DNA from: a virus
Taxonomy: Duplodnaviria; Heunggongvirae; Uroviricota; Caudoviricetes
DNA: 30,204 nt
Direction: 5' to 3' (one strand)
IMG/VR virus record: IMGVR_UViG_3300045988_156735
Shown here: positions 3,900-18,148 of the stretch, piece by piece
Position numbering within the stretch: position 1 is the stretch's first letter
Layout: each line of letters starts with the position of its first letter
Notes under the pieces: generated by a model
Databases searched by the model: none
Seen by the model: the letters and a program-made list of their open reading frames with translations, nothing else
Told to the model about the DNA's origin: nothing
Translations under genes and position numbers: made by a program

Positions 3900-3975
3900 G
3901 GCCCCTTAGCTCAGTGGTTAGAGCAGGCGACTCATAATCGCACGGTCATCGGTTCAAATCCGGTAGGGGCCACCA
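3900..3975 (+). tRNA. tRNA with CAU anticodon (tRNA-Ile2-like; could be annotated tRNA-Met)
   Basis: 76-nt cloverleaf folded by hand: acceptor GGCCCCT/AGGGGCC, D-arm GCTC-AGTGGTTA-GAGC, anticodon arm GGCGA-CTCATAA-TCGCA, T-arm ATCGG-TTCAAAT-CCGGT, discriminator A and encoded CCA. The 5-prime half matches my memory of E. coli ileX. Confidence 0.85.
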
Positions 3976-4283: not shown

Positions 4284-4871
4284 ATGGAGGCAATTGCATT
4301 GTTTAATCTGATTTATGCAGATCCCCCCTGGGAATACAAAGACAAGTGTAAGGATGGGAATCGTGGAGCTGGTTTTAAGTATCCAACGATGAAAGCTGAG
4401 GAGATTGCTCGTATTCCTGTCTGGCAACTTGCTAATCCTGAATCGTGTTTGTTGGCCATGTGGTGGGTTCCGACTCAGCCAGAAGAAGCGTTGCTGGTGG
4501 TGAAAGCATGGGGGTTCAGGCTTATGACCATGAAGGGCTTCACATGGAACAAATGTGGTAGCCGACAGCCAGATAAGCTGGTGATGGGGATGGGGCATAT
4601 GACTCGTGCGAACAGTGAAGATTGCTTGTTTGCGGTAAAAGGCAAACTGCCGACCCGCCTTGATGCGGGGATCATTCAGTCGTTTACATCGCCTCGTCTG
4701 GAACATTCACGGAAGCCTGATGTGGTTCGTGACAAGCTGGTAAGACTGTTAGGTGATGTTCCTCGTATTGAGCTGTTTGCTCGCGGTGATTTACCTGATG
4801 GCTGGCATGGCTGGGGCAACCAGTGCAACGGAGGTATCCAGTTGCATGATGCTCTCTGGCAAGTGCCATAG
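4284..4871 (+). CDS. MT-A70-family N6-adenine DNA methyltransferase (orphan, no restriction partner seen)
   Basis: 195 aa with the catalytic DPPW tetrapeptide (LIYADPPWEY) near the N-terminus and layout typical of small phage MT-A70/Dam-like enzymes. Confidence 0.75.
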   Translation: MEAIALFNLIYADPPWEYKDKCKDGNRGAGFKYPTMKAEEIARIPVWQLANPESCLLAMWWVPTQPEEALLVVKAWGFRLMTMKGFTWNKCGSRQPDKLVMGMGHMTRANSEDCLFAVKGKLPTRLDAGIIQSFTSPRLEHSRKPDVVRDKLVRLLGDVPRIELFARGDLPDGWHGWGNQCNGGIQLHDALWQVP

Positions 4872-7125: not shown

Positions 7126-7749
7126 ATGACAAAACATCTTAATGTGGTTTCTTTACCACTTTCTGTGTTGATTGGTTATGAAAAGAACGCTCGCACACAC
7201 TCCGTGGAGCAGGTAGATCAGATTGTTGCCAGCATACAGGAGTACGGATGGACTAATCCGATCCTGATAGACGAGAACAACGTTGTAATTGCTGGTCATG
7301 GTCGAATTGCTGCGGCCACTCAGTTGGGGATGGATGATGTTCCCTGCATTGTTCTGGAAGGGCTAACGGAGAATCAGAAGAAGGCATATCGTCTGGCCGA
7401 CAACCGTATTCCGCTGAATGCTGGTTGGGATGAAGAGCTGTTAAGCGCGGAGCTTGCAGATCTTGCGGCCGATGATTTTGCTCTGGACTCAATTGGTTTT
7501 ACTCAGCGCGAACTGGATAACTTATTGAGTGCGGCGGTCTACGATGACACAGAGGGTATGGATATCCCATTTGAGAAGGATGAGGCCAAATCAGGCGTAA
7601 AAGTTCAGTACCTGTCATTTGGAGGTCATAAAATCCCGGCAACGGATGAGGAAGCGGATCGTTTTGACTGCGCGGTGTCTCGTTATGTTGATGATAATGG
7701 CAGCTATATCGGATTTGTATCCGCATTGCTGGCTGGGGAGGTGTGCTGA
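7126..7749 (+). CDS. ParB-like N-terminal domain protein (paralog 1)
   Basis: 207 aa; ParB/Srx-type block ...NPILIDENNVVIAGHGRIAAATQLG...; about 60 percent identical by eye to the ORF at 10416-11006 over the N-terminal 100 aa. Confidence 0.65.
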   Translation: MTKHLNVVSLPLSVLIGYEKNARTHSVEQVDQIVASIQEYGWTNPILIDENNVVIAGHGRIAAATQLGMDDVPCIVLEGLTENQKKAYRLADNRIPLNAGWDEELLSAELADLAADDFALDSIGFTQRELDNLLSAAVYDDTEGMDIPFEKDEAKSGVKVQYLSFGGHKIPATDEEADRFDCAVSRYVDDNGSYIGFVSALLAGEVC

Positions 7750-9122
7750 TGCTTCACCTCAATTACGACATAACGCACCTACGCGGCGCGGAATATAACC
7801 CGCGTTTTATCGGTGAGGATGATCTTGCGAGGCTGGCGGAAAGCGTCAGGGAGCTGGGGCTTGTGAAGCCATTGATAGTGCGCGGCGATTTGCTGGTGGC
7901 GGGACACCAAAGGACGAAGGCGCTACGTAAGTTGGGAATAACGCGTGCTGCGGTGTATGTGTTGCCCTGTGAAACGACGGTATACGACGAAGTACGGTTT
8001 AACCAACTGCATAACGGAACGGATTTTGATAGCGGAGATGAGCGTTGCAGGGTGTCCGGTCTGGAAGATAAGCATGGTTTTGTTCAGGTATCGGCAAGCC
8101 AGATCTCAGGCAATATGCGCGCGAAAATGGCATATGTTCGAAAGAACATAGCGGAACTGGTTATCAAGTATGGTCCGTGGGGTGGTTGTGTTGCTACTCA
8201 GTCTGGTGAGGTTATTCACTGTGCTCAGTATGCATTAGCAGCGAAAATGACGCGCACACCGCTAACGGTGTTTGTGATCCCTGATGTTGAGAAGGAAAAA
8301 TACCAAAGTTATCTGAATAAAACTTATGGTGTATTTGAGTATTCTCATCTGGAGAAAACAACATACATCCAGACGTATGCGCAGCTTATGCGGTTGCGTA
8401 ATGGTGGCAGCCTGAAATCAAATCTGTATGAGTCGTTGATCCTCCCGATCATTGCCAAGACGCCAAGAGGAATTGATTTTGGTTCGGGGCAGGGAGACTA
8501 CGCGCGAATGCTCAGGGCAAAGGGATATAACCTGCATGATCTCGAGCTTTTCCGCCGTAAGGGCGCTGGAAACACTCTGGATAGGGCCGCAACAAACCGG
8601 ATGATTGATACGCTGGTGGACGACTTAAAAACGCGAGGGCGTTATGACTACGTGATTTGCGATAGCGTTTTGAACTCGGTCGATAGTGTCGAGGCTGAAT
8701 GGTCCGTTCTGACGGTTCTAAAAGGCCTGTGTAAAGCTGGTGGGTCAATATTCTTTTCTGGTCGTAGCCGTGGAGAGCTGGAAACAGTCCTGAAGCAAAC
8801 ACAAGCGGCGAGTTCCAAAAGCCGGCTTTATTTTATTGATCATAACGGTTTTACCGCGTTGTACCGGAAGGGGCACTGGTTTTACCAGAAGTTTCACTCT
8901 GATGATGAAGTGAAGCAGTTGTGTCGTGTACATGGTTTCAGGATTAAGCGGTCAATATTCAACTGTAAGAGCTGGTATTTGCACGTCATTAACGATGATT
9001 CCCTTAGTTGGGCGAGTCTGGAGAAAGCTGTTCGTTTTGAGTTTGAGTTGCCGTTGCCTGGTGGTTCAACAATCGGACGATCTGATGATGTGCTGGCGGC
9101 TTTCCGGCCGTTGATTAAGTAG
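7749..9122 (+). CDS. Fusion protein: ParB-like N-terminal domain plus C-terminal class-I SAM-methyltransferase-like domain
   Basis: ATG 7749 overlaps the upstream stop (ATGA) with GGGGAGG 9 nt upstream; N-terminus LIVRGDLLVAGHQRTKALRKLG (ParB-like); C-terminal half has IDFGSGQGDY (glycine-rich SAM motif I-like) and YDYVICDSVLNSV; no DPPY/NPPY-type motif seen. Confidence 0.55.
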   Translation: MLHLNYDITHLRGAEYNPRFIGEDDLARLAESVRELGLVKPLIVRGDLLVAGHQRTKALRKLGITRAAVYVLPCETTVYDEVRFNQLHNGTDFDSGDERCRVSGLEDKHGFVQVSASQISGNMRAKMAYVRKNIAELVIKYGPWGGCVATQSGEVIHCAQYALAAKMTRTPLTVFVIPDVEKEKYQSYLNKTYGVFEYSHLEKTTYIQTYAQLMRLRNGGSLKSNLYESLILPIIAKTPRGIDFGSGQGDYARMLRAKGYNLHDLELFRRKGAGNTLDRAATNRMIDTLVDDLKTRGRYDYVICDSVLNSVDSVEAEWSVLTVLKGLCKAGGSIFFSGRSRGELETVLKQTQAASSKSRLYFIDHNGFTALYRKGHWFYQKFHSDDEVKQLCRVHGFRIKRSIFNCKSWYLHVINDDSLSWASLEKAVRFEFELPLPGGSTIGRSDDVLAAFRPLIK

Positions 9123-9138
9123 TGTGTAGGAGGCGCTG

Positions 9139-9858
9139 GTGGCTGACAGAATTGAGATAAAGATGGATTTTTCTTCTCAGGATATTCAACGACAACTCCA
9201 GCGCCTTGAAGAACGCGAATTGCCGTTCGCAATGGCGCTTGCGGCAACCAGAACGGCAAAGGCTTCTCAGGCTGCGATTAAGAATGAAATTAATCGGGTA
9301 TTTGACAGGCCCACGCCGTGGATTCAGAACTCTACTTACGTTTTGGCCGCAAAGAAGAGTGATCCTACAGCCATTGTGTATGCTCGTGAATGGGGAGGAA
9401 CGCCAGCCCCTGTAACGTTGACTCCGCAAATCGAAGGTGGCCAACGACAGTACAAACGCTCAGAAGGGGCGCTAAGGGCTGGTGGATATTTGCCTAACGG
9501 CTGGCAGCTTGCTCCTGGTCCCGGCGCAAAGCTGGACAAATACGGGAATATTTCGCGGGGGCAATTACAGCAGGTCTTATCTGGCCTAAGAGTTCAGCGA
9601 GATGCGCATCAAAATCGCCGTCAGGGCAAGCCTACGGAGTTTTTTGTTGTTCGACCTGGTACAAGTAACCCGCTTCAACCAGGCGTCTGGCAGCGCGTTG
9701 GGCGGCGTCCTACGTTGATCCTTACGTTTATCCAGCAACCTAACTATTCGCAGCGTCTTGATTGGCATGGCGTGGCGCTGCGTGCTGGTGAGGATGCGTT
9801 TGCTGATGAAGTCACAAAGGCTATTGATGACATTCTTTCTAAGACCTTCTCTCGTTAA
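9139..9858 (+). CDS. Hypothetical protein (239 aa), third gene of the ParB-like module
   Basis: GTG 9139 with AGGAGG 6 nt upstream, 16 nt after the previous stop; Gly/Pro/Arg-rich central region; no motif recognised. Confidence 0.5.
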   Translation: MADRIEIKMDFSSQDIQRQLQRLEERELPFAMALAATRTAKASQAAIKNEINRVFDRPTPWIQNSTYVLAAKKSDPTAIVYAREWGGTPAPVTLTPQIEGGQRQYKRSEGALRAGGYLPNGWQLAPGPGAKLDKYGNISRGQLQQVLSGLRVQRDAHQNRRQGKPTEFFVVRPGTSNPLQPGVWQRVGRRPTLILTFIQQPNYSQRLDWHGVALRAGEDAFADEVTKAIDDILSKTFSR

Positions 9859-10048
9859 TCATCGTGTGGTTGATGGTGTTGTTATGCAGAGTGTATTCAC
9901 TGTGTTCTGTAGCGTCGCTCGCTGGCTGTCTGTGGGGGAGCACGAGCATCGTTTCATCGTCCGGCAGAATTGGGTCCTTCTGGCCAAAAGCGTTGGATGC
10001 GGGTCATTCGAACCCCGATGTTCGGCTAGCTAAACGTGAAAAAAGTTA

Positions 10049-10419
10049 GGTTAAAAGTTGCGGTAAAAGAAATTTACTCATCTCATTGAAAAATATCGGG
10101 AAAACGTGATTTTTTGCTGTATTTGTGCTGGTAAAAAGAAAGTAGAAAATTTTCTTTTAGATCATCAAGATACGCGCAGATCTTTAACCAATGTGATGTT
10201 GTTCTGATAAAAATCGTTATAAATCATGCAAATACATCCAATCTTTTAACCAAAACACCATCTCAAGATCCTTTTTACTTATAAAAACTTAATAAAATCA
10301 GATGATTATGCTGGTTTGTGTGATTTTTTATGAGTAAAAAGATCGTCATTTTTCTCTTTTAGTATCAATAAGTTAAACAGTTTTCTTTAACCTGTTGTGT
10401 TATGGCGGTTAAAAAATGG
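10049..10419. promoter_or_regulatory. AT-rich spacer with iterated TCTTTAACC-type motifs and GATC sites (candidate packaging site, protein-binding array or promoter)
   Basis: Direct repeats TCTTTAACCAA (10181), ATCTTTTAACCAAAA (10241), TTCTTTAACC (10383); inverted GGTTAA copies at 10049 and 10407; GATC at 10160, 10179, 10267, 10341; no credible ORF. Confidence 0.4.
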
Positions 10420-11006
10420 CTCTAAAAATCGAATATTTACCAGTCGGTAAGCTGCTCAGATACGCCAAAAATTCACGGACTCATTCAGATGAGCAGGTTG
10501 AACAGTTGGTGAACAGTATCCGTGAGTTCGGTTTCACTAATCCTGTGCTGATCGATGAAAAGAATGAACTGATTGCGGGGCATGGTCGGCTTGCAGCAGC
10601 CGAAATTCTGGAAATGGATAAAGTTCCGGCGATTCGGTTGAGTAACCTTTCTGAAAAACAGAAGAAGGCTTACAGGATTGCAGATAACAAGCTGGCCTTA
10701 AATGCTGGCTGGGATATGCAGCTTCTGGCCGAAGAAGTCAAAGAGTTAATGGATGATGATTTTGATATTGATCTGCTTGGGTTTAATGATGCAGAGCTTG
10801 ACGAAATGTTAAGCGATGAACAGCCGCAGGAAGAAGACGATAATTCTTCCCCTGTTGTTCAAATTAAGTACCTGTCTATTGATAAAGAACGTATTCCCGC
10901 GACGGATATGGAAATTGCATTGTTGCTGGATGTTTATCGTCAGTACCACGACGCGCATGAAACGCATGAGGGATTTGTTCAGTATCTTGCTAATGGTTGC
11001 AAGTAA
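10416..11006 (+). CDS. ParB-like N-terminal domain protein (paralog 2), immediately upstream of the terminase genes
   Basis: 196 aa; ...NPVLIDEKNELIAGHGRLAAAEILE...; stop overlaps the small terminase start (TAATG). Confidence 0.65.
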   Translation: MALKIEYLPVGKLLRYAKNSRTHSDEQVEQLVNSIREFGFTNPVLIDEKNELIAGHGRLAAAEILEMDKVPAIRLSNLSEKQKKAYRIADNKLALNAGWDMQLLAEEVKELMDDDFDIDLLGFNDAELDEMLSDEQPQEEDDNSSPVVQIKYLSIDKERIPATDMEIALLLDVYRQYHDAHETHEGFVQYLANGCK

Positions 11007-11557
11007 TGGCCATCGTCAGTAAGTCAGAGTTTGCTCGCCGGAAAGGTATTTCTCCGGCAATGGTTACGAAGCTCTGTCGTTCCGGTCGCATTCCAGTGCT
11101 GAAAAGCGGCAAGCTGGATTTTGATAAAGCCAGTGCGGCTTATGAAGCGAGCCGACAGGTTGGTCGTGAGGTATCTGCTGAAAATGGAAAAAGAGGGCAT
11201 GGGATATCTTCGGAACAACCAGAGTTACCCGCTGATGATGCCGGATTAGCTGGTGGTACTTCCGGTGTTGCGGTGCAATTCAACAAGGCTAAGACCGCAG
11301 AAAAAATTTATCAGGCAAAGCTGAAACGCCTTGAATTTGAAGAAAAGGAAGGCTCTCTCATCGCTAAAGATGCGGTCAGGGATGATGCATTTCTGGCAGC
11401 TAATGAATTGCGTAGCCGCTTATTTAGTATTGCTCCAAGAGCAGCTCCCCGTTGTGAAGGCAAAACAGCCAGGGAGATCGAACGCATTATTGAAGACGAG
11501 ATTAATTTTGCGCTTCAGGCGCTCCAGGAATCCCGATTTATTAAGCAGGAAGAATAA
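11006..11557 (+). CDS. Terminase small subunit
   Basis: 183 aa from ATG 11006; N-terminal HTH-like segment (SKSEFARRKGISPAMVTKL); ends 5 nt before the large terminase. Confidence 0.65.
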   Translation: MAIVSKSEFARRKGISPAMVTKLCRSGRIPVLKSGKLDFDKASAAYEASRQVGREVSAENGKRGHGISSEQPELPADDAGLAGGTSGVAVQFNKAKTAEKIYQAKLKRLEFEEKEGSLIAKDAVRDDAFLAANELRSRLFSIAPRAAPRCEGKTAREIERIIEDEINFALQALQESRFIKQEE

Positions 11558-11562
11558 ACCTC

Positions 11563-13419
11563 ATGGGCGAAACAGTATGGAGCACCGCTTTTTTCCGTGC
11601 GCTTCGCCCTAAATCACGGCTAACTGTTTCCGAATGGGCTGATAAGTATCGTCATGTAGCGCCGGGAACGTCTCCAGAGCCAGGGCCGTGGCGTACAAGC
11701 CGAGTGCCATATTTGCGTGAACCAATGGATGTTATTGGTGACGCTGATACAGAAACAGTAGTGATGCAATGTAGCTCGCAAATTGGTAAATCCGAATTAC
11801 AGCTAAATGTTATGGGTTACTTTGCAGATCAGGAGCCATCTCCTCAGTTGATGATTTATCCAACGGTAGAGGCGGCTGAGGCTTTTTCAAAAGAGCGTAT
11901 TGATCCGACGTTCAAATATTCCCCTGGTTTGAAACACAAGCTGCATGAAGGGAAAGAGGGGCGCGGTGCAGCCAAAAAGTCCAGCACGACTATACGTATG
12001 AAGCATTACGCTGGTGGATATATAGCACTTGTTGGTGCTAATTCCCCAGCAGGTCTTGCATCCAGGCCAATTCGAATACTGTTAGCTGATGAGATTGATC
12101 GTTACGGTGTGACGCAGGAGGGCGACCCACTAAAACTAGGTATTCAGCGTACTACCAACTTTCATAATCGTAAGAAAGTTTTTGTTTCTACTCCTGTTTT
12201 GGAGGAAACGAGCAAAATCCACAAGTGGTTTAAGCTCTCCGATCAGCGTTACTACCATGTTCCTTGCCCATGTTGTGGCACCATGCAGGTGATGAAATGG
12301 TCGCAAGTCAGATGGGATAAGAGCGATTCAGGTGAGGCGTTACCGGAAACGGCCAGATATGAGTGCTGTGAGTGCGGCGGGATTATGCGCGGATCTGGTA
12401 AACCAGACGTTGATTGGTTGGCGAAGGGGGTATGGATAGCTGAACATACTGGAGTTAAAGGTATTGTTGGTTTTCATATTAACAGTCTTTACTCCCCGTG
12501 GGTTGCATTGTCAGAGCTGGTTGAAGAATTTACGGAAGCAACCAGAAACCGCGATAAAAATGGATTAATGGAGTTTATTAACCTTAAGCTGGGTGAGCCA
12601 TGGAAAGAGGATGCTAAAGACGATATCGATCCTGAATACTTGTTGCAACGCAGAATAAGGTTTGAAGAGTTTTTACCAGATGATGTTTTATTGTTAAGTG
12701 CTGGTGTTGACGTACAGGACACGTATTTAGTTTGTGAATTGGTCGGTTGGGGAAAAGGTAAGGAGTCATGGGGGATAGAATATAAAATATTCCCAGGTGA
12801 TCCCGCACAAGATGTTGTCTGGAAACAACTTGATGAATACTTACTCCGTAGCTGGTCATTCCGTGACGGTCGAAAATTACAGATTTCTTCCGTTTGTATT
12901 GACTCTGGTGGGCATTTTACGACAGAGGTATATCGCTTTACTAAGCCGAGAGAATCAAGGCGAATATACTCTATCAGGGGGCGTGGTGGGGTAGGTTTAC
13001 CATTTATAGGAAAGCCAAGTAATAATAACCGTGTGGGTGCTATGTTGTTTAATTTGGGGGTTGATGATGGTAAAGGGACCATCATGGCAAGAATTAAACT
13101 ACATGATCCTGGTCCTGGTTATATGCATTTCCCATTAGATTCTGACAGAGGATATGATACCGAATACTTTAAAGGATTATTATCAGAGAAGAAAATATTT
13201 GAATATAAAAATGGGCAGACAAAAGAAAAGTGGGTGAAAGTCTACGAGCGTAACGAGCCTCTTGATTGCCGTAACTATGCAACTGCCGCGATGGAAATTC
13301 TGAACCCTAATTTTAACTGGCTTGCCGAACAGGAAATGCGAGGTAATGTGTATGTGCAGAACTCGTCAGGTATACGTAGAAGACGCCGTAGAGTTATAAG
13401 TAAAGGCGTAACCATATAG
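11563..13419 (+). CDS. Terminase large subunit, lambda GpA family
   Basis: 618 aa; N-terminal region with VMQCSSQIGKSE P-loop-like block and overall length and layout matching GpA-type terminases as I recall them. Confidence 0.8.
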   Translation: MGETVWSTAFFRALRPKSRLTVSEWADKYRHVAPGTSPEPGPWRTSRVPYLREPMDVIGDADTETVVMQCSSQIGKSELQLNVMGYFADQEPSPQLMIYPTVEAAEAFSKERIDPTFKYSPGLKHKLHEGKEGRGAAKKSSTTIRMKHYAGGYIALVGANSPAGLASRPIRILLADEIDRYGVTQEGDPLKLGIQRTTNFHNRKKVFVSTPVLEETSKIHKWFKLSDQRYYHVPCPCCGTMQVMKWSQVRWDKSDSGEALPETARYECCECGGIMRGSGKPDVDWLAKGVWIAEHTGVKGIVGFHINSLYSPWVALSELVEEFTEATRNRDKNGLMEFINLKLGEPWKEDAKDDIDPEYLLQRRIRFEEFLPDDVLLLSAGVDVQDTYLVCELVGWGKGKESWGIEYKIFPGDPAQDVVWKQLDEYLLRSWSFRDGRKLQISSVCIDSGGHFTTEVYRFTKPRESRRIYSIRGRGGVGLPFIGKPSNNNRVGAMLFNLGVDDGKGTIMARIKLHDPGPGYMHFPLDSDRGYDTEYFKGLLSEKKIFEYKNGQTKEKWVKVYERNEPLDCRNYATAAMEILNPNFNWLAEQEMRGNVYVQNSSGIRRRRRRVISKGVTI

Positions 13420-13430
13420 AGGAAATATAA

Positions 13431-13670
13431 ATGAACAATGAAGCATTTTCTCTGACTGAAGCCAGAGAGATGTTATCTGTCTGGCGGGAAGCATATCGCG
13501 CTATTGCTATTGGCGGTCAGTCATATAAATTTGGTACGCGGCAGTTAACTCGTGCGGATTTATCAGAAGTCAGAAAAGAGATGGATTACTGGCGTAATGA
13601 AGTAGAAAGATTATCAGCAGGTATACGCCGAGGCCCACGAATTAAACGAGTGGTGATAAGAGATTTATGA
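13431..13670 (+). CDS. Head-tail joining protein, lambda gpW-like
   Basis: 79 aa between terminase and portal; AGAGGA RBS; basic C-terminus (RRGPRIKRV). Confidence 0.6.
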   Translation: MNNEAFSLTEAREMLSVWREAYRAIAIGGQSYKFGTRQLTRADLSEVRKEMDYWRNEVERLSAGIRRGPRIKRVVIRDL

Positions 13671-15241
13671 ATATTCTTGATCGAGTTATTGCGCCGTTTT
13701 CACCTCAGAGGGCATTAAATCGAGCTTTGGCAAGAAAACGGTTAGAAGCACTTGAAGGTATTAATAACCTTGGATATTCACGTCATGGTGCAAGCACTCA
13801 TAAAAAATCATTAAGGGGTTGGTTTAGTAAAGCTGGTTCTCCTGATGATGATATTGTTAAAAATATAGATAAATTGCGTGAGCGTTCTCGTGATCTCTTC
13901 ATGGGAAACCCGCTATCGGTTGGCGCAATAAAAACTATCAGGACAAACGTTGTTGGTTCCGGTTTAAAACTAAATGCGAACATTGATGCCGATTTCTTGG
14001 GGATGACGCAGGAAGAAGCGCGAGCATGGGAAAAGCATGTTGAGCGTGAGTTTAGATTATGGGCTGATTCTCCAAATTGTGATGCATCAAGAATGTGTAC
14101 TTTTGGACAATTGCAATCATTGGTCCAAATATCTGCGTTAACATCTGGCGATATATTTGCTGCGCTACCAGTTATTAAGCGTAAGGGTGTTATATATGAT
14201 TTGTGCGTCTATTTAATTGAAGGTGATCGTGTTTGCAATCCAGAGGATCGTTTTATACCAAATCTTTACGGTGGCGTAGAGGTTGGTGAATTTAGCGAGC
14301 CTGTGGCGTACTGGGTTGCAAAACATCACCCAGCCGGGACTTCTGGTTTTGTAACCCGCAAGTGGGAACGTATTCCCGCATATGGGAGTAAAACAGGAAG
14401 AAGAAATATTCTGCATGTCATGCAGGATTTTGAAAGGCCTGGGCAACGTCGTGGCGTTCCTGTCCTTGCTCCTGTTATTGAAGCATTGAAGCAGTTAGGA
14501 CGATACACCGATGCTGAATTGGTTGCTGCGGTTGTGTCAGGGATGTTTACTGTCTTTATTAAAACAGACGCTCCTGATGGACCAGTCGGTGAATCGGGTA
14601 TCCCTCAGTACGAGCAGATCGATAACCATGATGATAACACCCAAGAAATGGGGAATGGCTCCATAGTAAGTTTGGGTGAAGGTGAGTCGATAGATACAGC
14701 AAATCCCGGGCGACCAAATACGGCATTTGATGGTTTTGTTGTCGCCATATGCCGTCAAATTGGGGCTGCTTTAGAACTCCCTTACGAACTCTTGGTAAAG
14801 CATTTTACAGCAAGTTATAGCGCAAGCAGGGCCGCATTACTTGAAGCCTGGAAAATGTTCCGTATGCGACGTGACTGGATGGTTCAGTCATTTTGCCAAC
14901 CGATCTATGAGGAATGGTTGGCCGAAGCCGTTGCTAAAGGTCGTGTTATTGCCCCTGGTTTTTTTTATGGGCCTGAATATCGCGCTGCATGGAGTGGCGC
15001 TCAATGGTATGGCCCATCACAAGGCCAATTAGATCCCCTTAAAGAAGTCAAAGCTGCAAAACTGCGTGTTGAGGAAACATTCTCTACCCGTGAAAAGGAA
15101 GCGGCTGAAATGTCAGGTCTTAACTGGGAAGAAACCGCACAAATTTGTGGCAGAGAAGAGAATGCTCGCCGTGAGTTGGGGCTGATTACGCCTCCTGTTT
15201 CTGAGGTAAATGAACAAAATATGGAGACAGATGATGCCTAA
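13667..15241 (+). CDS. Portal protein (lambda gpB-like)
   Basis: 524 aa; ATG overlaps the gpW-like stop; canonical position between W and the prohead protease. Confidence 0.8.
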   Translation: MNILDRVIAPFSPQRALNRALARKRLEALEGINNLGYSRHGASTHKKSLRGWFSKAGSPDDDIVKNIDKLRERSRDLFMGNPLSVGAIKTIRTNVVGSGLKLNANIDADFLGMTQEEARAWEKHVEREFRLWADSPNCDASRMCTFGQLQSLVQISALTSGDIFAALPVIKRKGVIYDLCVYLIEGDRVCNPEDRFIPNLYGGVEVGEFSEPVAYWVAKHHPAGTSGFVTRKWERIPAYGSKTGRRNILHVMQDFERPGQRRGVPVLAPVIEALKQLGRYTDAELVAAVVSGMFTVFIKTDAPDGPVGESGIPQYEQIDNHDDNTQEMGNGSIVSLGEGESIDTANPGRPNTAFDGFVVAICRQIGAALELPYELLVKHFTASYSASRAALLEAWKMFRMRRDWMVQSFCQPIYEEWLAEAVAKGRVIAPGFFYGPEYRAAWSGAQWYGPSQGQLDPLKEVKAAKLRVEETFSTREKEAAEMSGLNWEETAQICGREENARRELGLITPPVSEVNEQNMETDDA

Positions 15242-16298
15242 TTGGTGGGAAATAAAAAATAGCACGGGTGAAGATGACTCTCCGGCTGAACTTTTAATCT
15301 ACGGATATATTGGCGAATTTGATGAGGTTTCTTCTTCTGACATAGTTAATAAATTAAAGGATATATCATCAAATGCTATCAACGTAAAAATTAATAGTTA
15401 TGGTGGTTCTGTTTTTACTGCTCAAGCTATTCTTTCTTCATTAAAACGTCATAAGGCTAATATTACTGTTTATATTGATGGTATTGCTGCATCGGCTGCA
15501 ACCATTATTGCAATGGCAGGTGATAAAGTTGTTATCCCATCTAATGCTATGATGATGATCCATAATCCGTGGACATTTGCTGCTGGTGATGCGGATGAAC
15601 TACGTGATATTGCTGAGATGATGGATAAGATACGAGATAGTATTTTATCTGCATATAAGGAGAAAACAGGGCTTTCTGAGGATAAATTAATTGAACTAAT
15701 GGATCAGGAAACATGGCTAAATGCAGAAGAGGCTGTAGAGCTTGGATTTGCTGACGAAGTTGAAAAACCAATGCGCTTATCCGCTTCTATAAAGGAAGGG
15801 ATGCTTTCGCTCAATGGAATAACTTTTGAAGCATCAAGGTTTTCAAAATTACCTGATTCGCTCGCAAAGTTGCCACAAAATAAAAATGAATTATCTACTG
15901 AATTAAATGAACAAAATGAGGACGATGTTGTGACTCTTGATGAATTAAAAAATAAACATCCAGAATTATACAATCAGGTTTTTAATGCTGGTAAAGACGA
16001 GGGCGTTAAATCAGAACGCGAGCGCATTGAAACAATCGAGAATAGCGTGATTCCAGGTCATGACGACCTGGTTAAGAATGCAAAATTCAAAACGGGAGTT
16101 TCTGCGGCTGAACTTGCTTTGGAAATTATGAATGCAGAGCGAGCGCGTAACAAAAACTTTCTTAATCAACGGCAAGAAGACGCAAATGAGGTGAATGATT
16201 CAGTTGATGTTAATCAACCAGAAAACAACGGAGATAAACAAGCTGAAGTAGTAAAAAATGTTATTGGGTCAGTATTTAAAAACCGCGATAAAAATTAA
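15210..16298 (+). CDS. ClpP-like (S14) prohead protease fused to a scaffold-like C-terminal domain
   Basis: 362 aa; N-terminal half ...YGGSVFTAQAIL...IDGIAASAATIIAMAGDKVVIPSNAMMMIHNPW... is ClpP-like; C-terminal 150 aa is charged and helical. Start may instead be ATG 15231 or 15234. Confidence 0.75.
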   Translation: MNKIWRQMMPNWWEIKNSTGEDDSPAELLIYGYIGEFDEVSSSDIVNKLKDISSNAINVKINSYGGSVFTAQAILSSLKRHKANITVYIDGIAASAATIIAMAGDKVVIPSNAMMMIHNPWTFAAGDADELRDIAEMMDKIRDSILSAYKEKTGLSEDKLIELMDQETWLNAEEAVELGFADEVEKPMRLSASIKEGMLSLNGITFEASRFSKLPDSLAKLPQNKNELSTELNEQNEDDVVTLDELKNKHPELYNQVFNAGKDEGVKSERERIETIENSVIPGHDDLVKNAKFKTGVSAAELALEIMNAERARNKNFLNQRQEDANEVNDSVDVNQPENNGDKQAEVVKNVIGSVFKNRDKN

Positions 16299-16307
16299 GG
16301 TGAGTTT

Positions 16308-16691
16308 ATGCGAGAGTCTTTTTCATTTGAACCAGATAATCTGATTATTTCTGGTGGTATGCCAGCAATTACAACAAGTATTAAACTTGCCAGCGGTAAA
16401 GTAAATCGAGGTGAGTTGCTTGCTTTTGTCAGTATTGATCAGACAACAAATGTTGTCACTGTAGCACCAATAAATCTCTCTGGTGAGGGGGTGGCAAAAG
16501 AACCGTATTGTATCGCTCAACACAGTATTGATGCGACTGATTCAGCGCAAGTTGGAACAGCATGGCTGACCGGAATGTTCAATGCACATGCGGTTATCCT
16601 TCCTGAATCAGCAAAGATTGCCGATGTATATCTGGCTTGCCGGAAGGTTGGGATATTCCTTAACACCGCACAACAAAATCCATCTGCATAA
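16308..16691 (+). CDS. Head decoration protein (lambda gpD-like)
   Basis: 127 aa, immediately upstream of the major capsid gene; AAGGTGAG RBS. Confidence 0.6.
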   Translation: MRESFSFEPDNLIISGGMPAITTSIKLASGKVNRGELLAFVSIDQTTNVVTVAPINLSGEGVAKEPYCIAQHSIDATDSAQVGTAWLTGMFNAHAVILPESAKIADVYLACRKVGIFLNTAQQNPSA

Positions 16692-16711
16692 TATAAAGAG
16701 GTCGTATTTTT

Positions 16712-17755
16712 ATGCCGAATATTGATATTTTTGAACGACGTACAATGCTTGAGCCTGTTATTCAGAATTTCAAGGCTCGTCGTTTTCTTCTTCGTACCTT
16801 TTTTCCTGGTGTTCAGACCTTTAATACAAAGAAAGTTGATCTGGATTTTGTTCGCGGTGGCCGTACTATGGCTCCGTTTGTTGGTAAAGGTTTTGGCTCA
16901 AAAACCGTTGAGCGACGCGGCTTTGTAACGAGAACTCTGGAGCCACCACTTGTTGCACCTGATTTGGTAACAACAGCAGAGCTGCTTTTAAACAGGCTTC
17001 CGGGTGAGAATATTTACAACGCAAAATCGCCAGCAGAACGAGCCGCCGAGCAATTAGGTAAAGATTTGCTTGAGCTTGATGAAATGGTTAACCGCCGTGA
17101 AGAATGGATGTGTGCACAAGTCTTGTTTACGGGGCAGGTTGATATTGTTGGTGAAGGTGTGGATGACACAGTTTATTTTTGGCCTGAAGAGGAAGGAGAT
17201 AAACCATATCTTGAACTGACAGGTGATGATTTATGGAGTGCTGCAAAATCAGATCCGTTGGTCAATGTTCGCAACTGGAAACGTCGGGTATCACTAACTT
17301 CAGGTTTTACACCTCGTGTTGCCGTAATGGGCGCAAAAGTTGTTGATGCTTTCGTTAAAAATGAAGCAGTAACTAAATATCTTGATAATCGCCGAAAAGA
17401 GCTTGGGTATATTGAGCCTAAGGAGTTAGAAGAAGGCGTAACTCATTATGGCAATCTTGAAGGTGTCGATTTTTATGGTTACGACGAACTTATTCGCAAT
17501 GATAAAACAGGAAAACCAGAACCATTAGTACCGGAAGATAAGATCCTCTTTGGCTCTCCTGGTCGAGGAACGATGCTGTATGGTGCTGTAGAGCTTGTAG
17601 ATGACGCCGAAAAGACTCTAACGATTGTTGAGTCACCACGAGTTCCAGACACCTGGGTAACTCGTAAGCCGGCTGGCCGTTATGTTGCCATGAAGTCATC
17701 TCCACTGCCTAATCCTGGTGTGGCTGATGCCTATCTGGTGGCTAAGGTGGTTTAA
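16712..17755 (+). CDS. Major capsid protein, lambda gpE family
   Basis: 347 aa; C-terminal VPDTWVTRKPAGRYVAMKSSPL resembles the lambda gpE C-terminus as I recall it; length and position fit. Confidence 0.8.
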   Translation: MPNIDIFERRTMLEPVIQNFKARRFLLRTFFPGVQTFNTKKVDLDFVRGGRTMAPFVGKGFGSKTVERRGFVTRTLEPPLVAPDLVTTAELLLNRLPGENIYNAKSPAERAAEQLGKDLLELDEMVNRREEWMCAQVLFTGQVDIVGEGVDDTVYFWPEEEGDKPYLELTGDDLWSAAKSDPLVNVRNWKRRVSLTSGFTPRVAVMGAKVVDAFVKNEAVTKYLDNRRKELGYIEPKELEEGVTHYGNLEGVDFYGYDELIRNDKTGKPEPLVPEDKILFGSPGRGTMLYGAVELVDDAEKTLTIVESPRVPDTWVTRKPAGRYVAMKSSPLPNPGVADAYLVAKVV

Positions 17756-18148
17756 ATGGCCAGACTGATTAAAAACATTGATACGATAAGCCACGGCTCG
17801 CTAAAAGCGGGCCGTTTGCTTAATGGGCTAATGGATAACTCCAGAATTGCCGAACTGATTGCGTCAGGACATGCTATTGCCACCGAAGAGGATGGTGATT
17901 TGGCATCGGCCGGGGGCTATGATGCTGCTAAGTTAGCTTTTGAGCATGGATACGCATCTGCTGTTAATGATGCTGTGGACGCGGGGTTGATTACGCGAAC
18001 GGAGGCGGGTAGCTGTGTATTCGAGGTTGAGTTTGAGGATGATGGCGGCAATGAGGAAACGGTTGCTGATGATTCATCTGAATCTGTAGCTACTTCTGAT
18101 ACCAGTAATGCGAAAAAATCAACGCAAAAAAAAGGTAATAAGAAGTAA
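17756..18148 (+). CDS. Hypothetical head-associated protein with acidic C-terminal tail
   Basis: 130 aa; ATG overlaps the capsid stop region; acidic stretch EVEFEDDGGNEETVADDSSE. Confidence 0.45.
   Translation: MARLIKNIDTISHGSLKAGRLLNGLMDNSRIAELIASGHAIATEEDGDLASAGGYDAAKLAFEHGYASAVNDAVDAGLITRTEAGSCVFEVEFEDDGGNEETVADDSSESVATSDTSNAKKSTQKKGNKK

Follow-up and report, generated by a model that had tools for sequence, protein, structure and literature searches.

Results

A gene-free stretch in a phage-plasmid

We analysed a window of 30,204 nucleotides from a tailed-phage genome (IMG/VR record IMGVR_UViG_3300045988_156735, Caudoviricetes), concentrating on a gene-free stretch at 9859-10415 that separates a gene for a 239-aa protein from an operon encoding a ParB-like protein, a small terminase (TerS) and a large terminase (TerL). 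Positions 9970-10415 are very probably a lambda-type cos site, made up of cosQ, a 12-nt cosN, an I2-like block and a cosB built from repeats, and belonging to a phage-plasmid of about 48 kb found in Escherichia and Salmonella. The coordinates of all features are collected in Table 1. An earlier note on this DNA, made from its letters alone, had described the stretch as an AT-rich spacer free of open reading frames (ORFs), with TTAACC-core repeats and a cluster of GATC sites, and had proposed a cos or packaging-recognition region, a ParB-like binding array or a methylation-sensitive late promoter.

The region is 97-100% identical to plasmids of about 48 kb in 72 of 5426 complete E. coli genomes, the reference strain ATCC 25922 among them, and all but one of these matches (71/72) are plasmid-borne; the same element was also found in E. 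fergusonii, E. albertii, Klebsiella and Salmonella. A near-identical 48.8-kb plasmid, p48 of strain 1428, encodes repA, a ParA gene and an XRE repressor, and its genes run, mostly on one strand, from an early region through lysis genes and the gap to the terminase, head and contractile-tail genes. Three plaque-forming Yersinia pestis phages (vB_YpM_39, _41 and _44) are 98.5-99.6% identical to the window across the stretch, with a TerL that is 100% identical, and the element is therefore a phage-plasmid that produces infectious particles. Cos sites of this kind are already well known; no description of the present one was found in the literature available. Our initial guess that it belongs to the pSLy3 phage-plasmid group was rejected, pSLy3 being a member of the SSU5 supergroup. 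For conservation we compared the window with Salmonella-type relatives and with a third lineage (L032), all about 62% identical overall.

That the stretch lacks a credible ORF was borne out: the longest frames (61 and 91 aa) run through the non-conserved segment 9870-9949 and over the cut site described below, and no small ORF of at least 20 aa in the gap is conserved or credible. The description as AT-rich holds for 10014-10415 (30% guanine plus cytosine, GC; 0.31 over 10001-10400) but not for 9859-10013, where GC is about 52%. The motifs were found where the earlier note had placed them, to within 1 nt: TCTTTAACC at 10181-10189 and 10384-10392, TCTTTTAACC at 10242-10251, GGTTAA at 10049 and 10407, and GATC at 10160, 10179, 10267 and 10341. 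Several scans of the gap were negative. RNA folding of 9855-9975 was no better than that of shuffles (z -0.17), a search of 9000-11500 against Rfam at E<=1 gave no match, and scans for sigma-70 promoters and terminators returned neither a promoter nor a relevant terminator. The one tRNA gene detected in a tRNA scan lies at 3900-3975, outside the gap, the tRNA-like look of GGGTCATTCGAACCCC being that of cosN.

The probable cut site and genome ends

The place of the cut can be read from the ends of related genome records. Those of YpM_41 and YpM_39 start with GGTCATTCGAAC, at 10002, and finish with ..GGATGCG, at 10001, while that of YpM_44 starts with CCCGATG, at 10014, and finishes with ..GGTCATTCGAAC, at 10013. 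Assemblies made independently thus have one or the other of two breakpoints, separated by exactly 12 nt, which is the signature of a 12-nt cohesive end. The Vibrio phages PVP-XSN, XM1, R19R and X29, whose TerL is 63-65% identical and whose gene order is the same, have their linear ends at the homologous 12-mer GGTGCTCGCGAC: the PVP-XSN record begins with it and ends directly before it, 23 nt after GGGTCCT; the XM1 record carries it at both ends together with one extra A, which fits a filled-in, A-tailed 5' overhang; and the R19R and X29 records break no more than 1-2 nt from its right border. The ends of X29 were defined experimentally, by the drop-off in read coverage (PMC5690320). Two more distant records, those of Acinetobacter phage HFM1 and Serratia phage vB_SspM_BZS1 (BZS1), carry a 5' cos called by PhageTerm and an annotated cosL, respectively. 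By analogy with the XM1 and HFM1 records, the cohesive ends of the present element may be 5'-protruding.

The cut site has a rotational symmetry of 10/22 bp, as in lambda. The block that adjoins it on the right follows a pattern, CCCG..TTCG.CTAGCTA, that is common to the Salmonella type, Vibrio XM1 and X29 and Serratia BZS1, and that lambda matches loosely (TTTTCGCTATTTA). No retrieved locus started at cos, either in a metagenome scan (0/11) or in IMG/VR (0/25).

As a side observation, the annotated end of BZS1 (MT843275.1) lies 24 nt past GGGTCCT, and its cosL starts with GCATTGCGCGCC. Shifting this end by 1 nt would give a CG/GG junction, a CGCG right flank and a 23-nt spacing as in lambda and here, and the annotated cosL may thus be one base off.

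A cosQ-like heptamer

The heptamer GGGTCCT is the packaging-termination signal in lambda. It occurs only once in the window, and once in the whole 48.8-kb plasmid, counting both strands, and it is separated by 23 nt from the predicted top-strand nick. In lambda (NC_001416) the same heptamer is found at 48473-48479, 23 nt before the last base, 48502; these coordinates correspond to the lambda cosQ as mapped by the Feiss laboratory, and the comparison itself shows only the same heptamer at the same distance. When the window is anchored on the predicted nick and set against the lambda ends, GGGTCCTT aligns without a gap. Work by Feiss and colleagues describes cosQ as a highly conserved 7-bp site that is needed for the termination cut (PMC4669245). 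Here the heptamer does not vary among the E. coli, Salmonella and L032 lineages, and in XM1 and PVP-XSN it also stands 23 nt before the end. The proposal of a cos or packaging-recognition region proved right in kind: the stretch is best read as the cos region of a GpA/gpNu1-type terminase, with the GGTTAA repeats as the best candidate TerS sites, but cosN and cosQ themselves lie in the GC-normal left part, which had not been singled out.

A repeat family right of the cut

The TTAACC copies belong to a wider family, GGT[AT]AAA[AG][AG] (GGTWAAARR), of which 402 bp hold 7 copies against 0.09 expected from local shuffles. The other 29.8 kb of the window contain only 2, and the whole plasmid has 10, of which 7 fall in this region. 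They lie in one orientation at 10049, 10062, 10130 and 10407 and in the opposite one at 10181, 10243 and 10384, with two AGT variants at 10271 and 10333; read on the + strand, the unit is (G/A)ATC(C)TTT(T)WACC. Of the four GATC sites, those at 10179, 10267 and 10341 fall inside such units, so the repeats and the GATC cluster that had been listed separately are largely one feature.

How unusual this is depends on the test. The motif of the earlier note is well above expectation (3 copies against 0.01 in local dinucleotide shuffles, a post hoc test). In an unbiased test GGTTAAA occurs five times (P=0.07 for the maximum 7-mer multiplicity), the corresponding value for 8-mers is P=0.32, and there are 21 repeated 8-mers where 9.3 are expected (P=0.003). 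GATC occurs 4 times against 0.87 expected for the local composition (P=0.007), and about one in two stretches of 30 kb would by chance hold four sites as closely spaced (P=0.54).

The first repeat starts at +48, counted from the first base of the cohesive end, a position that matches R3 of lambda, which lies at about +50. Repeats with a related GGT(T)AAC-type core are found at +50, +66, +83, +102 and +125 in XM1 (GGTTAACAC/G), from +51 in X29, at +48, +55 and +67 in BZS1 (GGTAACA) and at +49 in HFM1 (GCTAACAC). Enteric and Vibrio lineages differ in the helix-turn-helix of TerS and also in the flanks of the repeats. Most likely the repeats are R-type binding sites of TerS, because the small terminase is the one candidate binder in every lineage, including BZS1 and HFM1, which have no intervening ParB-like gene. 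The copy at 10407 is probably not a functional repeat. YpM_44, which was isolated on Y. pestis, lacks 10140-10229 (the deletion junction is ambiguous by 2 nt), so that neither the repeat at 10181 nor GATC at 10160 and 10179 is essential.

Two further properties of the segment were examined. AA/TT dinucleotides are phased at 10.5 bp over 10014-10415 (P=0.008), which suggests intrinsic curvature, and matches to the IHF consensus are not significant, with 3 perfect ones in 30 kb against 2.2 expected.

Conservation of the site

The best conserved non-coding DNA is 9990-10069 (identity 0.80-0.88). To its left, 9870-9949 is essentially unalignable (0.17-0.40); to its right, 10190-10269 is poorly conserved (0.30-0.50) and 10270-10389 about as well conserved as the flanking genes (0.62-0.78). 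Among the copies in the earlier note, those at 10049, 10181 and 10384 are kept in Salmonella-type relatives and those at 10242 and 10407 are not; GATC is mostly kept at 10267 and 10341, partly at 10179 and not at 10160. Because the search patterns for the IMG/VR and metagenome loci came from 10027-10059, conservation there is partly ascertained, whereas that of cosQ and cosN is not.

The L032 locus (IMGVR_UViG_2824588292_000004, cosN at locus position 4417) merits a remark of its own. It combines a perfect cosQ-cosN core with a diverged AT-rich segment in which three repeat sites read GGTGAAA. It is homologous to the window up to about codon 60 of the ParB-like gene and again from ORFs of 114, 161 and 99 aa onward, which precede a 489-aa tail-sheath-like ORF, so the terS/terL/portal/protease/capsid module of about 7.5 kb (compare window 10590-18148) seems to have been deleted. 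L032 may be a defective element in decay, or else a hitch-hiker that carries cos and depends on the terminase and heads of a helper. Lacking terS altogether, it allows no co-variation of TerS and repeats to be read from it.

The distal segment

From the end to the next gene the element has 414 bp, compared with +140 to +153 for the start of the ParB-like gene in the Vibrio phages and +75 for terS in BZS1. The Vibrio relatives do without the distal segment of about 270 bp, which is therefore not needed for cos function as such. It is possible, although we consider it unlikely, that about 10230-10415 is, besides being part of cos, a regulatory leader of the packaging operon, in the form of an activator-dependent or Dam-sensitive promoter or of a structured RNA with an effect on read-through transcripts (a substrate for RNase III-type processing, an attenuator or a stabiliser). 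The conservation of 10270-10389 at the level of coding DNA would fit such a role, as would the IHF consensus at 10363 and a conserved TAAAAT at 10293-10298. A further point in its favour is an inverted repeat with arms of 31 nt each at 10271-10301 and 10311-10341, 77% complementary, which folds far better as + than as - strand RNA: for 10262-10350 the values are -25.7 kcal/mol (z -5.6; 0/200 shuffles as good) and -14.6 kcal/mol (z -2.8). Its apical stem and its outer stem, closed by the two mostly conserved GATC sites at 10267 and 10341, are kept in nine variants from three diverged lineages, with 95.7% of cells paired against about 50% in slid controls.

On the other hand, covariation in the stems amounts to one compensatory pair (CG<->UA), a single event, and each arm is itself a repeat unit, the two lying in opposite orientation; a pair of protein sites would thus account for the symmetry no less well than an RNA structure. 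The scans mentioned above found neither a sigma-70-like promoter nor a terminator nor an Rfam family, the remaining intergenic regions of the plasmid yielded no common motif (every hit had E>=0.45), and a promoter in the left arm and an RNA hairpin would be mutually exclusive. For the methylation-sensitive late promoter of the earlier note in particular we found no positive support: in addition to the negative promoter scan, three of the four GATC sites sit within the repeat unit, two are unconserved and two are deleted in a viable phage.

A bolder form of the idea, which we regard as quite doubtful, is that the enteric-specific segment 10140-10415 acts as a switch for the phage-plasmid lifestyle, the conserved 78-nt hairpin and the inverted copies that flank it coupling expression of the ParB-like gene, terS and terL to terminase occupancy, Dam methylation or RNA processing. 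If true, the packaging genes would stay silent during plasmid replication.

Neighbouring genes

The three genes to the right of the gap, on the + strand, support the reading as a cos site by their families. TerL, with the ATPase and nuclease domains of the gpA family, is about 28% identical to gpA of lambda and N15. TerS matches the same PHROG as lambda Nu1, phrog_57, which Nu1 matches at 1e-76. Its residues 5-39 resemble Cox-like and other helix-turn-helix profiles; it is 43% identical to TerS of Vibrio phage X29, with a diverged helix-turn-helix region, and no solved homologue was found by sequence search. We use the ATG start of terS as in RefSeq; the ORF with a TTG start begins at 10997. 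Past TerL come a gpW-like DUF6148 protein and a lambda-type portal.

The 196-aa ParB-like protein is 59% identical to the product of the first gene of X29. Solved ParB and Noc structures align to it only over residues ~5-91, and no helix-turn-helix was detected in it. Two more genes with a ParB N-terminal domain lie on the other side of cos, giving three in all (7126-7749, 7743-9122 and 10416-11006). Two of the three proteins (207 and 196 aa) are paralogues in phrog_620, and the third is a 459-aa fusion of ParB_N with a methyltransferase (phrog_5475); the order of ParB-like plus ParB-methyltransferase, cos and ParB-like is kept in Salmonella relatives.

Further afield, the tRNA gene at 3900-3975 sits between the lysis genes and a gene for an MT-A70 methyltransferase; ARAGORN calls it tRNA-Met (CAT), whereas RefSeq has it as tRNA-Ile on p48, which would imply a lysidine-modified CAT. 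GATC is rarer than expected across the window, with 78 sites, or 20 per 7.7 kb, against 103.6 +/- 8.7 in shuffles, every one of which had at least 78. The element encodes several methyltransferases, and the low GATC count may reflect avoidance of Dam- or restriction-related sites. The plasmid p48 also has two repeat sets unlike those at cos: AT-rich TATAAATCTATA-type repeats at 8624-8736, just upstream of the ParA gene and likely a partition or operator site, and three CACAnnTnGTGGTTT repeats at 9919-10040, likely operators, in a divergent region beside the XRE repressor.

Table 1. Features in and around the proposed cos site, in window coordinates
Feature	Position	Strand	Remarks
Upstream gene, 239 aa	9139-9858		Stop codon bounds the gap on the left
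Spacer after the stop of the 239-aa gene, GC-normal, non-conserved	9859-9969		Identity 0.17-0.40 with indels against Salmonella-type relatives
cosQ-like heptamer GGGTCCT	9972-9978	+	23 nt before the predicted top-strand nick (10001/10002)
23-nt spacer from cosQ to nick, ending ..GCG	9979-10001	+	Nearly invariant in three enteric lineages; DNA further left unalignable
cosN, 12-nt cohesive end GGTCATTCGAAC	10002-10013	+	Predicted nicks 10001/10002 (top) and 10013/10014 (bottom)
I2-like conserved block CCCGATGTTCGGCTAGCTAAACG adjoining the nick	10014-10036	+	Pattern CCCG..TTCG.CTAGCTA
First two repeats, GGTTAAAAG (10049) and GGTAAAAGA (10062)	10049-10070	+	Proposed R3-equivalent small-terminase sites, core cosB
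Third repeat GGTAAAAAG	10130-10138	+	TGGTAAAAAGAA invariant in E. coli and Salmonella types
Dispensable 90 bp with TCTTTAACC at 10181 and GATC at 10160 and 10179	10140-10229		Deleted in plaque-forming vB_YpM_44
Inverted repeat copy GGTTAAAGATC (copy 1 of the earlier note), GATC inside unit	10179-10189	-	T.TTT.ACC conserved in Salmonella type and L032
Inverted repeat copy GGTTAAAAGATT (copy 2)	10240-10251	-	Not conserved; relatives read TTTTTTTACT
GATC-closed inverted repeat/hairpin	10267-10344	+	Arms GATCCTTTTTACT and AGTAAAAAGATC, two opposed repeat units; apical stem AAUCAG/CUGGUU
IHF-consensus match TATCAATAAGTTA	10363-10375	+	Kept in L032, not in Salmonella type
Inverted repeat copy GGTTAAAGA (copy 3)	10384-10392	-	Relatives keep it as TCTTTTACC / TTTTTAACC
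GGTTAAAAA, overlapping the ribosome-binding region of the ParB-like gene	10407-10415	+	GGTGAA in Salmonella type, GGCTAC in L032
ParB/Srx N-terminal-domain protein, 196 aa, first gene after cos	10416-11006	+	Pfam ParB_N E 3.8e-8; phrog_620 E 2e-75
Small terminase, gpNu1 family, N-terminal helix-turn-helix	11006-11557	+	phrog_57 E 7e-42
Large terminase, gpA family	11563-13419	+	Pfam GpA_ATPase 7e-76, GpA_nuclease 1e-84

Discussion

Packaging at the proposed cos site

The case for a cos site is carried by the ends of seven related phage records, the identity and spacing of cosQ, the families of the terminase proteins, the conservation profile, the enrichment of the repeats and their start at +48, and the dispensability of 10140-10229. 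From these elements a course of events can be proposed. On concatemeric DNA, the small terminase of the gpNu1 family would bind sites with a GGT(T)AAA core, which begin 47 bp right of the cut (10049, 10062 and 10130) and are followed downstream by more, inverted copies, in DNA that is AT-rich and presumably curved. This binding would position the large terminase of the gpA family on cosN, where it would nick the strands 12 nt apart and leave cohesive ends GGTCATTCGAAC, probably 5'-protruding. Packaging would then proceed rightward, into the side of the ParB-like gene, terS and terL (a direction that we infer), and stop at the next cos, where GGGTCCT, 23 bp before the nick, would direct the termination cut as cosQ. 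Once the DNA is injected, its ends would anneal and restore the circle, with plasmid upkeep left to the distantly encoded RepA and ParA.

Several points weigh against this reading and should be stated together. The ends are read from the linearisation of GenBank records of relatives, and the three Yersinia records are flagged as circular; the literature search turned up neither a publication on the YpM phages of Yersinia nor one that quotes the 12-mers. The cohesive end is identical to that of lambda (GGGCGGCGACCT) at only 3/12 positions, and two relatives deviate from the 23-nt spacing, namely X29 (22 nt) and BZS1 as annotated (24 nt). As for cosB, the repeat family was defined post hoc, with the sequence in view, its assignment to TerS is drawn from position and homology, and the conservation of 10042-10059 is partly ascertained, this segment having been the search pattern for the IMG/VR loci. 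There is no convincing IHF site between the first repeats, a feature of complex-type cosB, the only match lying far off at 10363-10375. Finally, terS does not directly follow cosB, the 196-aa ParB_N gene standing in between, here as well as in the Vibrio relatives.

If the reading as a cos site is correct, it fixes the true genome ends and the map orientation of a common phage-plasmid family, and it provides the small terminase with concrete candidate recognition sites. DNA that carries about 100-150 bp of the site (9970-10140) becomes a candidate for transduction by these phages, a point of relevance to how resistance genes spread and to the design of cosmid-like vectors or packaging assays for this phage family. 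We see three points of particular interest: the retention of cosQ, the presence of a ParB-like gene between cosB and terS, and the partly conserved extension of 270 bp. The first of these, the persistence of the lambda heptamer and its 23-bp spacing at a TerL identity to gpA of only about 28%, adds a small but useful piece of information on packaging termination.

Alternative explanations

Besides the regulatory leader discussed above, three other explanations of the repeats have to be weighed. One, also raised by the earlier note, is that they form a binding array of the adjacent 196-aa ParB-like protein rather than of the small terminase; this protein could have an accessory part in packaging, as a nuclease factor for instance, or a part in partition. 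This would account for the position of the ParB_N gene directly after the repeats, a placement conserved in the Vibrio relatives, and for an element that encodes three ParB_N proteins. We nevertheless think it improbable: BZS1 and HFM1 have GGTAAC-type repeats at +48 with terS directly next and no ParB-like gene in between, the adjacent protein has only the N-terminal (Srx-like) domain of ParB with no detectable helix-turn-helix, and the ParA gene of the plasmid is about 16 kb away, with different AT-rich repeats of its own. A ParABS partition site (parS or centromere) was rejected, given the same distance from parA, the distinct repeats there and the absence of a full ParB next to this stretch.

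There is very little chance, in our view, that the repeats and the GATC cluster are functionless products of low-complexity AT-rich DNA. The unbiased 7-mer and 8-mer maxima, the ease with which an equally tight GATC cluster arises in 30 kb, and the lack of conservation of the copies at 10242 and 10407 are what such an explanation would predict; against it stand the local excess of the family, its concentration here among all plasmid copies, the surplus of repeated 8-mers, the conservation in the Salmonella lineage of copies at +48, +129, +180 and +383, and the homologous arrays at the same offset in four other phage lineages.

Hardly credible, finally, is a plasmid or lytic replication origin with iterons, an unwinding element and Dam sites, as in P1 oriR: low GC, short repeats, four GATC sites and the plasmid state in 71 of 72 E. 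coli genomes would suit it, but repA is about 24 kb away with no trace of the repeat motif near it, the region has no DnaA box with at most one mismatch, the stretch lies at the physical end of the virion DNA, a viable phage lacks 90 bp that include one repeat and two GATC sites, and homologous repeats adjoin cos in phages that are not plasmids. An iteron-type origin was accordingly rejected, AT-richness being the only feature that fits.

Comparison with known systems

A close model is lambda, with which the site shares GGGTCCT 23 nt from the nick, the 12-nt stagger, the same degree of symmetry, CG to the left of the top-strand nick, a first putative TerS site at about +48 where lambda has R3, and further inverted copies like R2. 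The proteins agree as well, with TerS in the Nu1 PHROG and TerL with GpA ATPase and nuclease domains, and lysis genes, cos and terminase follow in order on one strand. The differences are equally clear: the cohesive ends and TerL have diverged to 3/12 and about 28% identity, GGTWAAARR is unrelated to the R sites, the distance from the end to the next gene is 414 bp rather than 190 bp, that gene encodes a ParB-like protein rather than TerS, there is no clear IHF site between the first repeats, and the element is a plasmid-prophage with a contractile tail. Significant identity of the cohesive ends to those of lambda is the criterion of Feiss for 'lambda-like phages' (PMC4669245). Judged by its sequence, the present site would work like lambda cos, yet it is outside this narrow cohesive-end group.

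N15 offers a second parallel. Its 'simple' cosB depends on a single critical R3, and an inverted rR2 about 200 bp distal is non-essential (PMC4669245). Like our element, N15 is a phage-plasmid with a lambda-type cos; it has a critical site near +50, as proposed here for the repeat at +48, and a dispensable distal inverted copy, the counterpart here being the copy at +180 that is deleted in YpM_44. Unlike our element, it has cohesive ends identical to those of lambda at 10/12 positions and a TerL 65% identical to lambda's, its rR2 lies inside terS, and its plasmid is linear with telomeres, whereas ours is circular with RepA.

Serratia BZS1 and Acinetobacter HFM1 are more distant relatives, with a TerL of the gpA family (37-46% identical), a phrog_57 TerS, cos ends annotated at the equivalent place and GGTAACA or GCTAACAC at +48 or +49; BZS1 additionally has GGGTCCT before its end (24 nt as annotated) and TCTAGCTA after it. 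Both differ in that no ParB-like gene separates cos from terS, which starts at +75 in BZS1 and at +183 in HFM1, and HFM1 has an 11-nt end and no GGGTCCT.

A further group of relatives is formed by the Vibrio phages X29, phi 2, XM1, PVP-XSN and R19R, proposed as 'Weiviridae' (PMC11432961). They carry integrases, not plasmid functions (PMC5690320), and neither of these two papers describes a cos site for them. They share with our element the order cos, ParB-like gene, terS and terL, with identities of 63-65% for TerL and 59% for the ParB-like protein, as well as GGGTCCT, the 12-nt GGTGCTCGCGAC, CCCG..TTCG.CTAGCTA after the nick and GGTTAA-core repeats from +50. In contrast to the arrangement described here, their repeats are five direct and regularly spaced copies (17-24 bp) of GGTTAACAC within 140-153 bp, with neither the AT-rich extension nor the inverted copies that distinguish the cos region of the enteric phage-plasmid.

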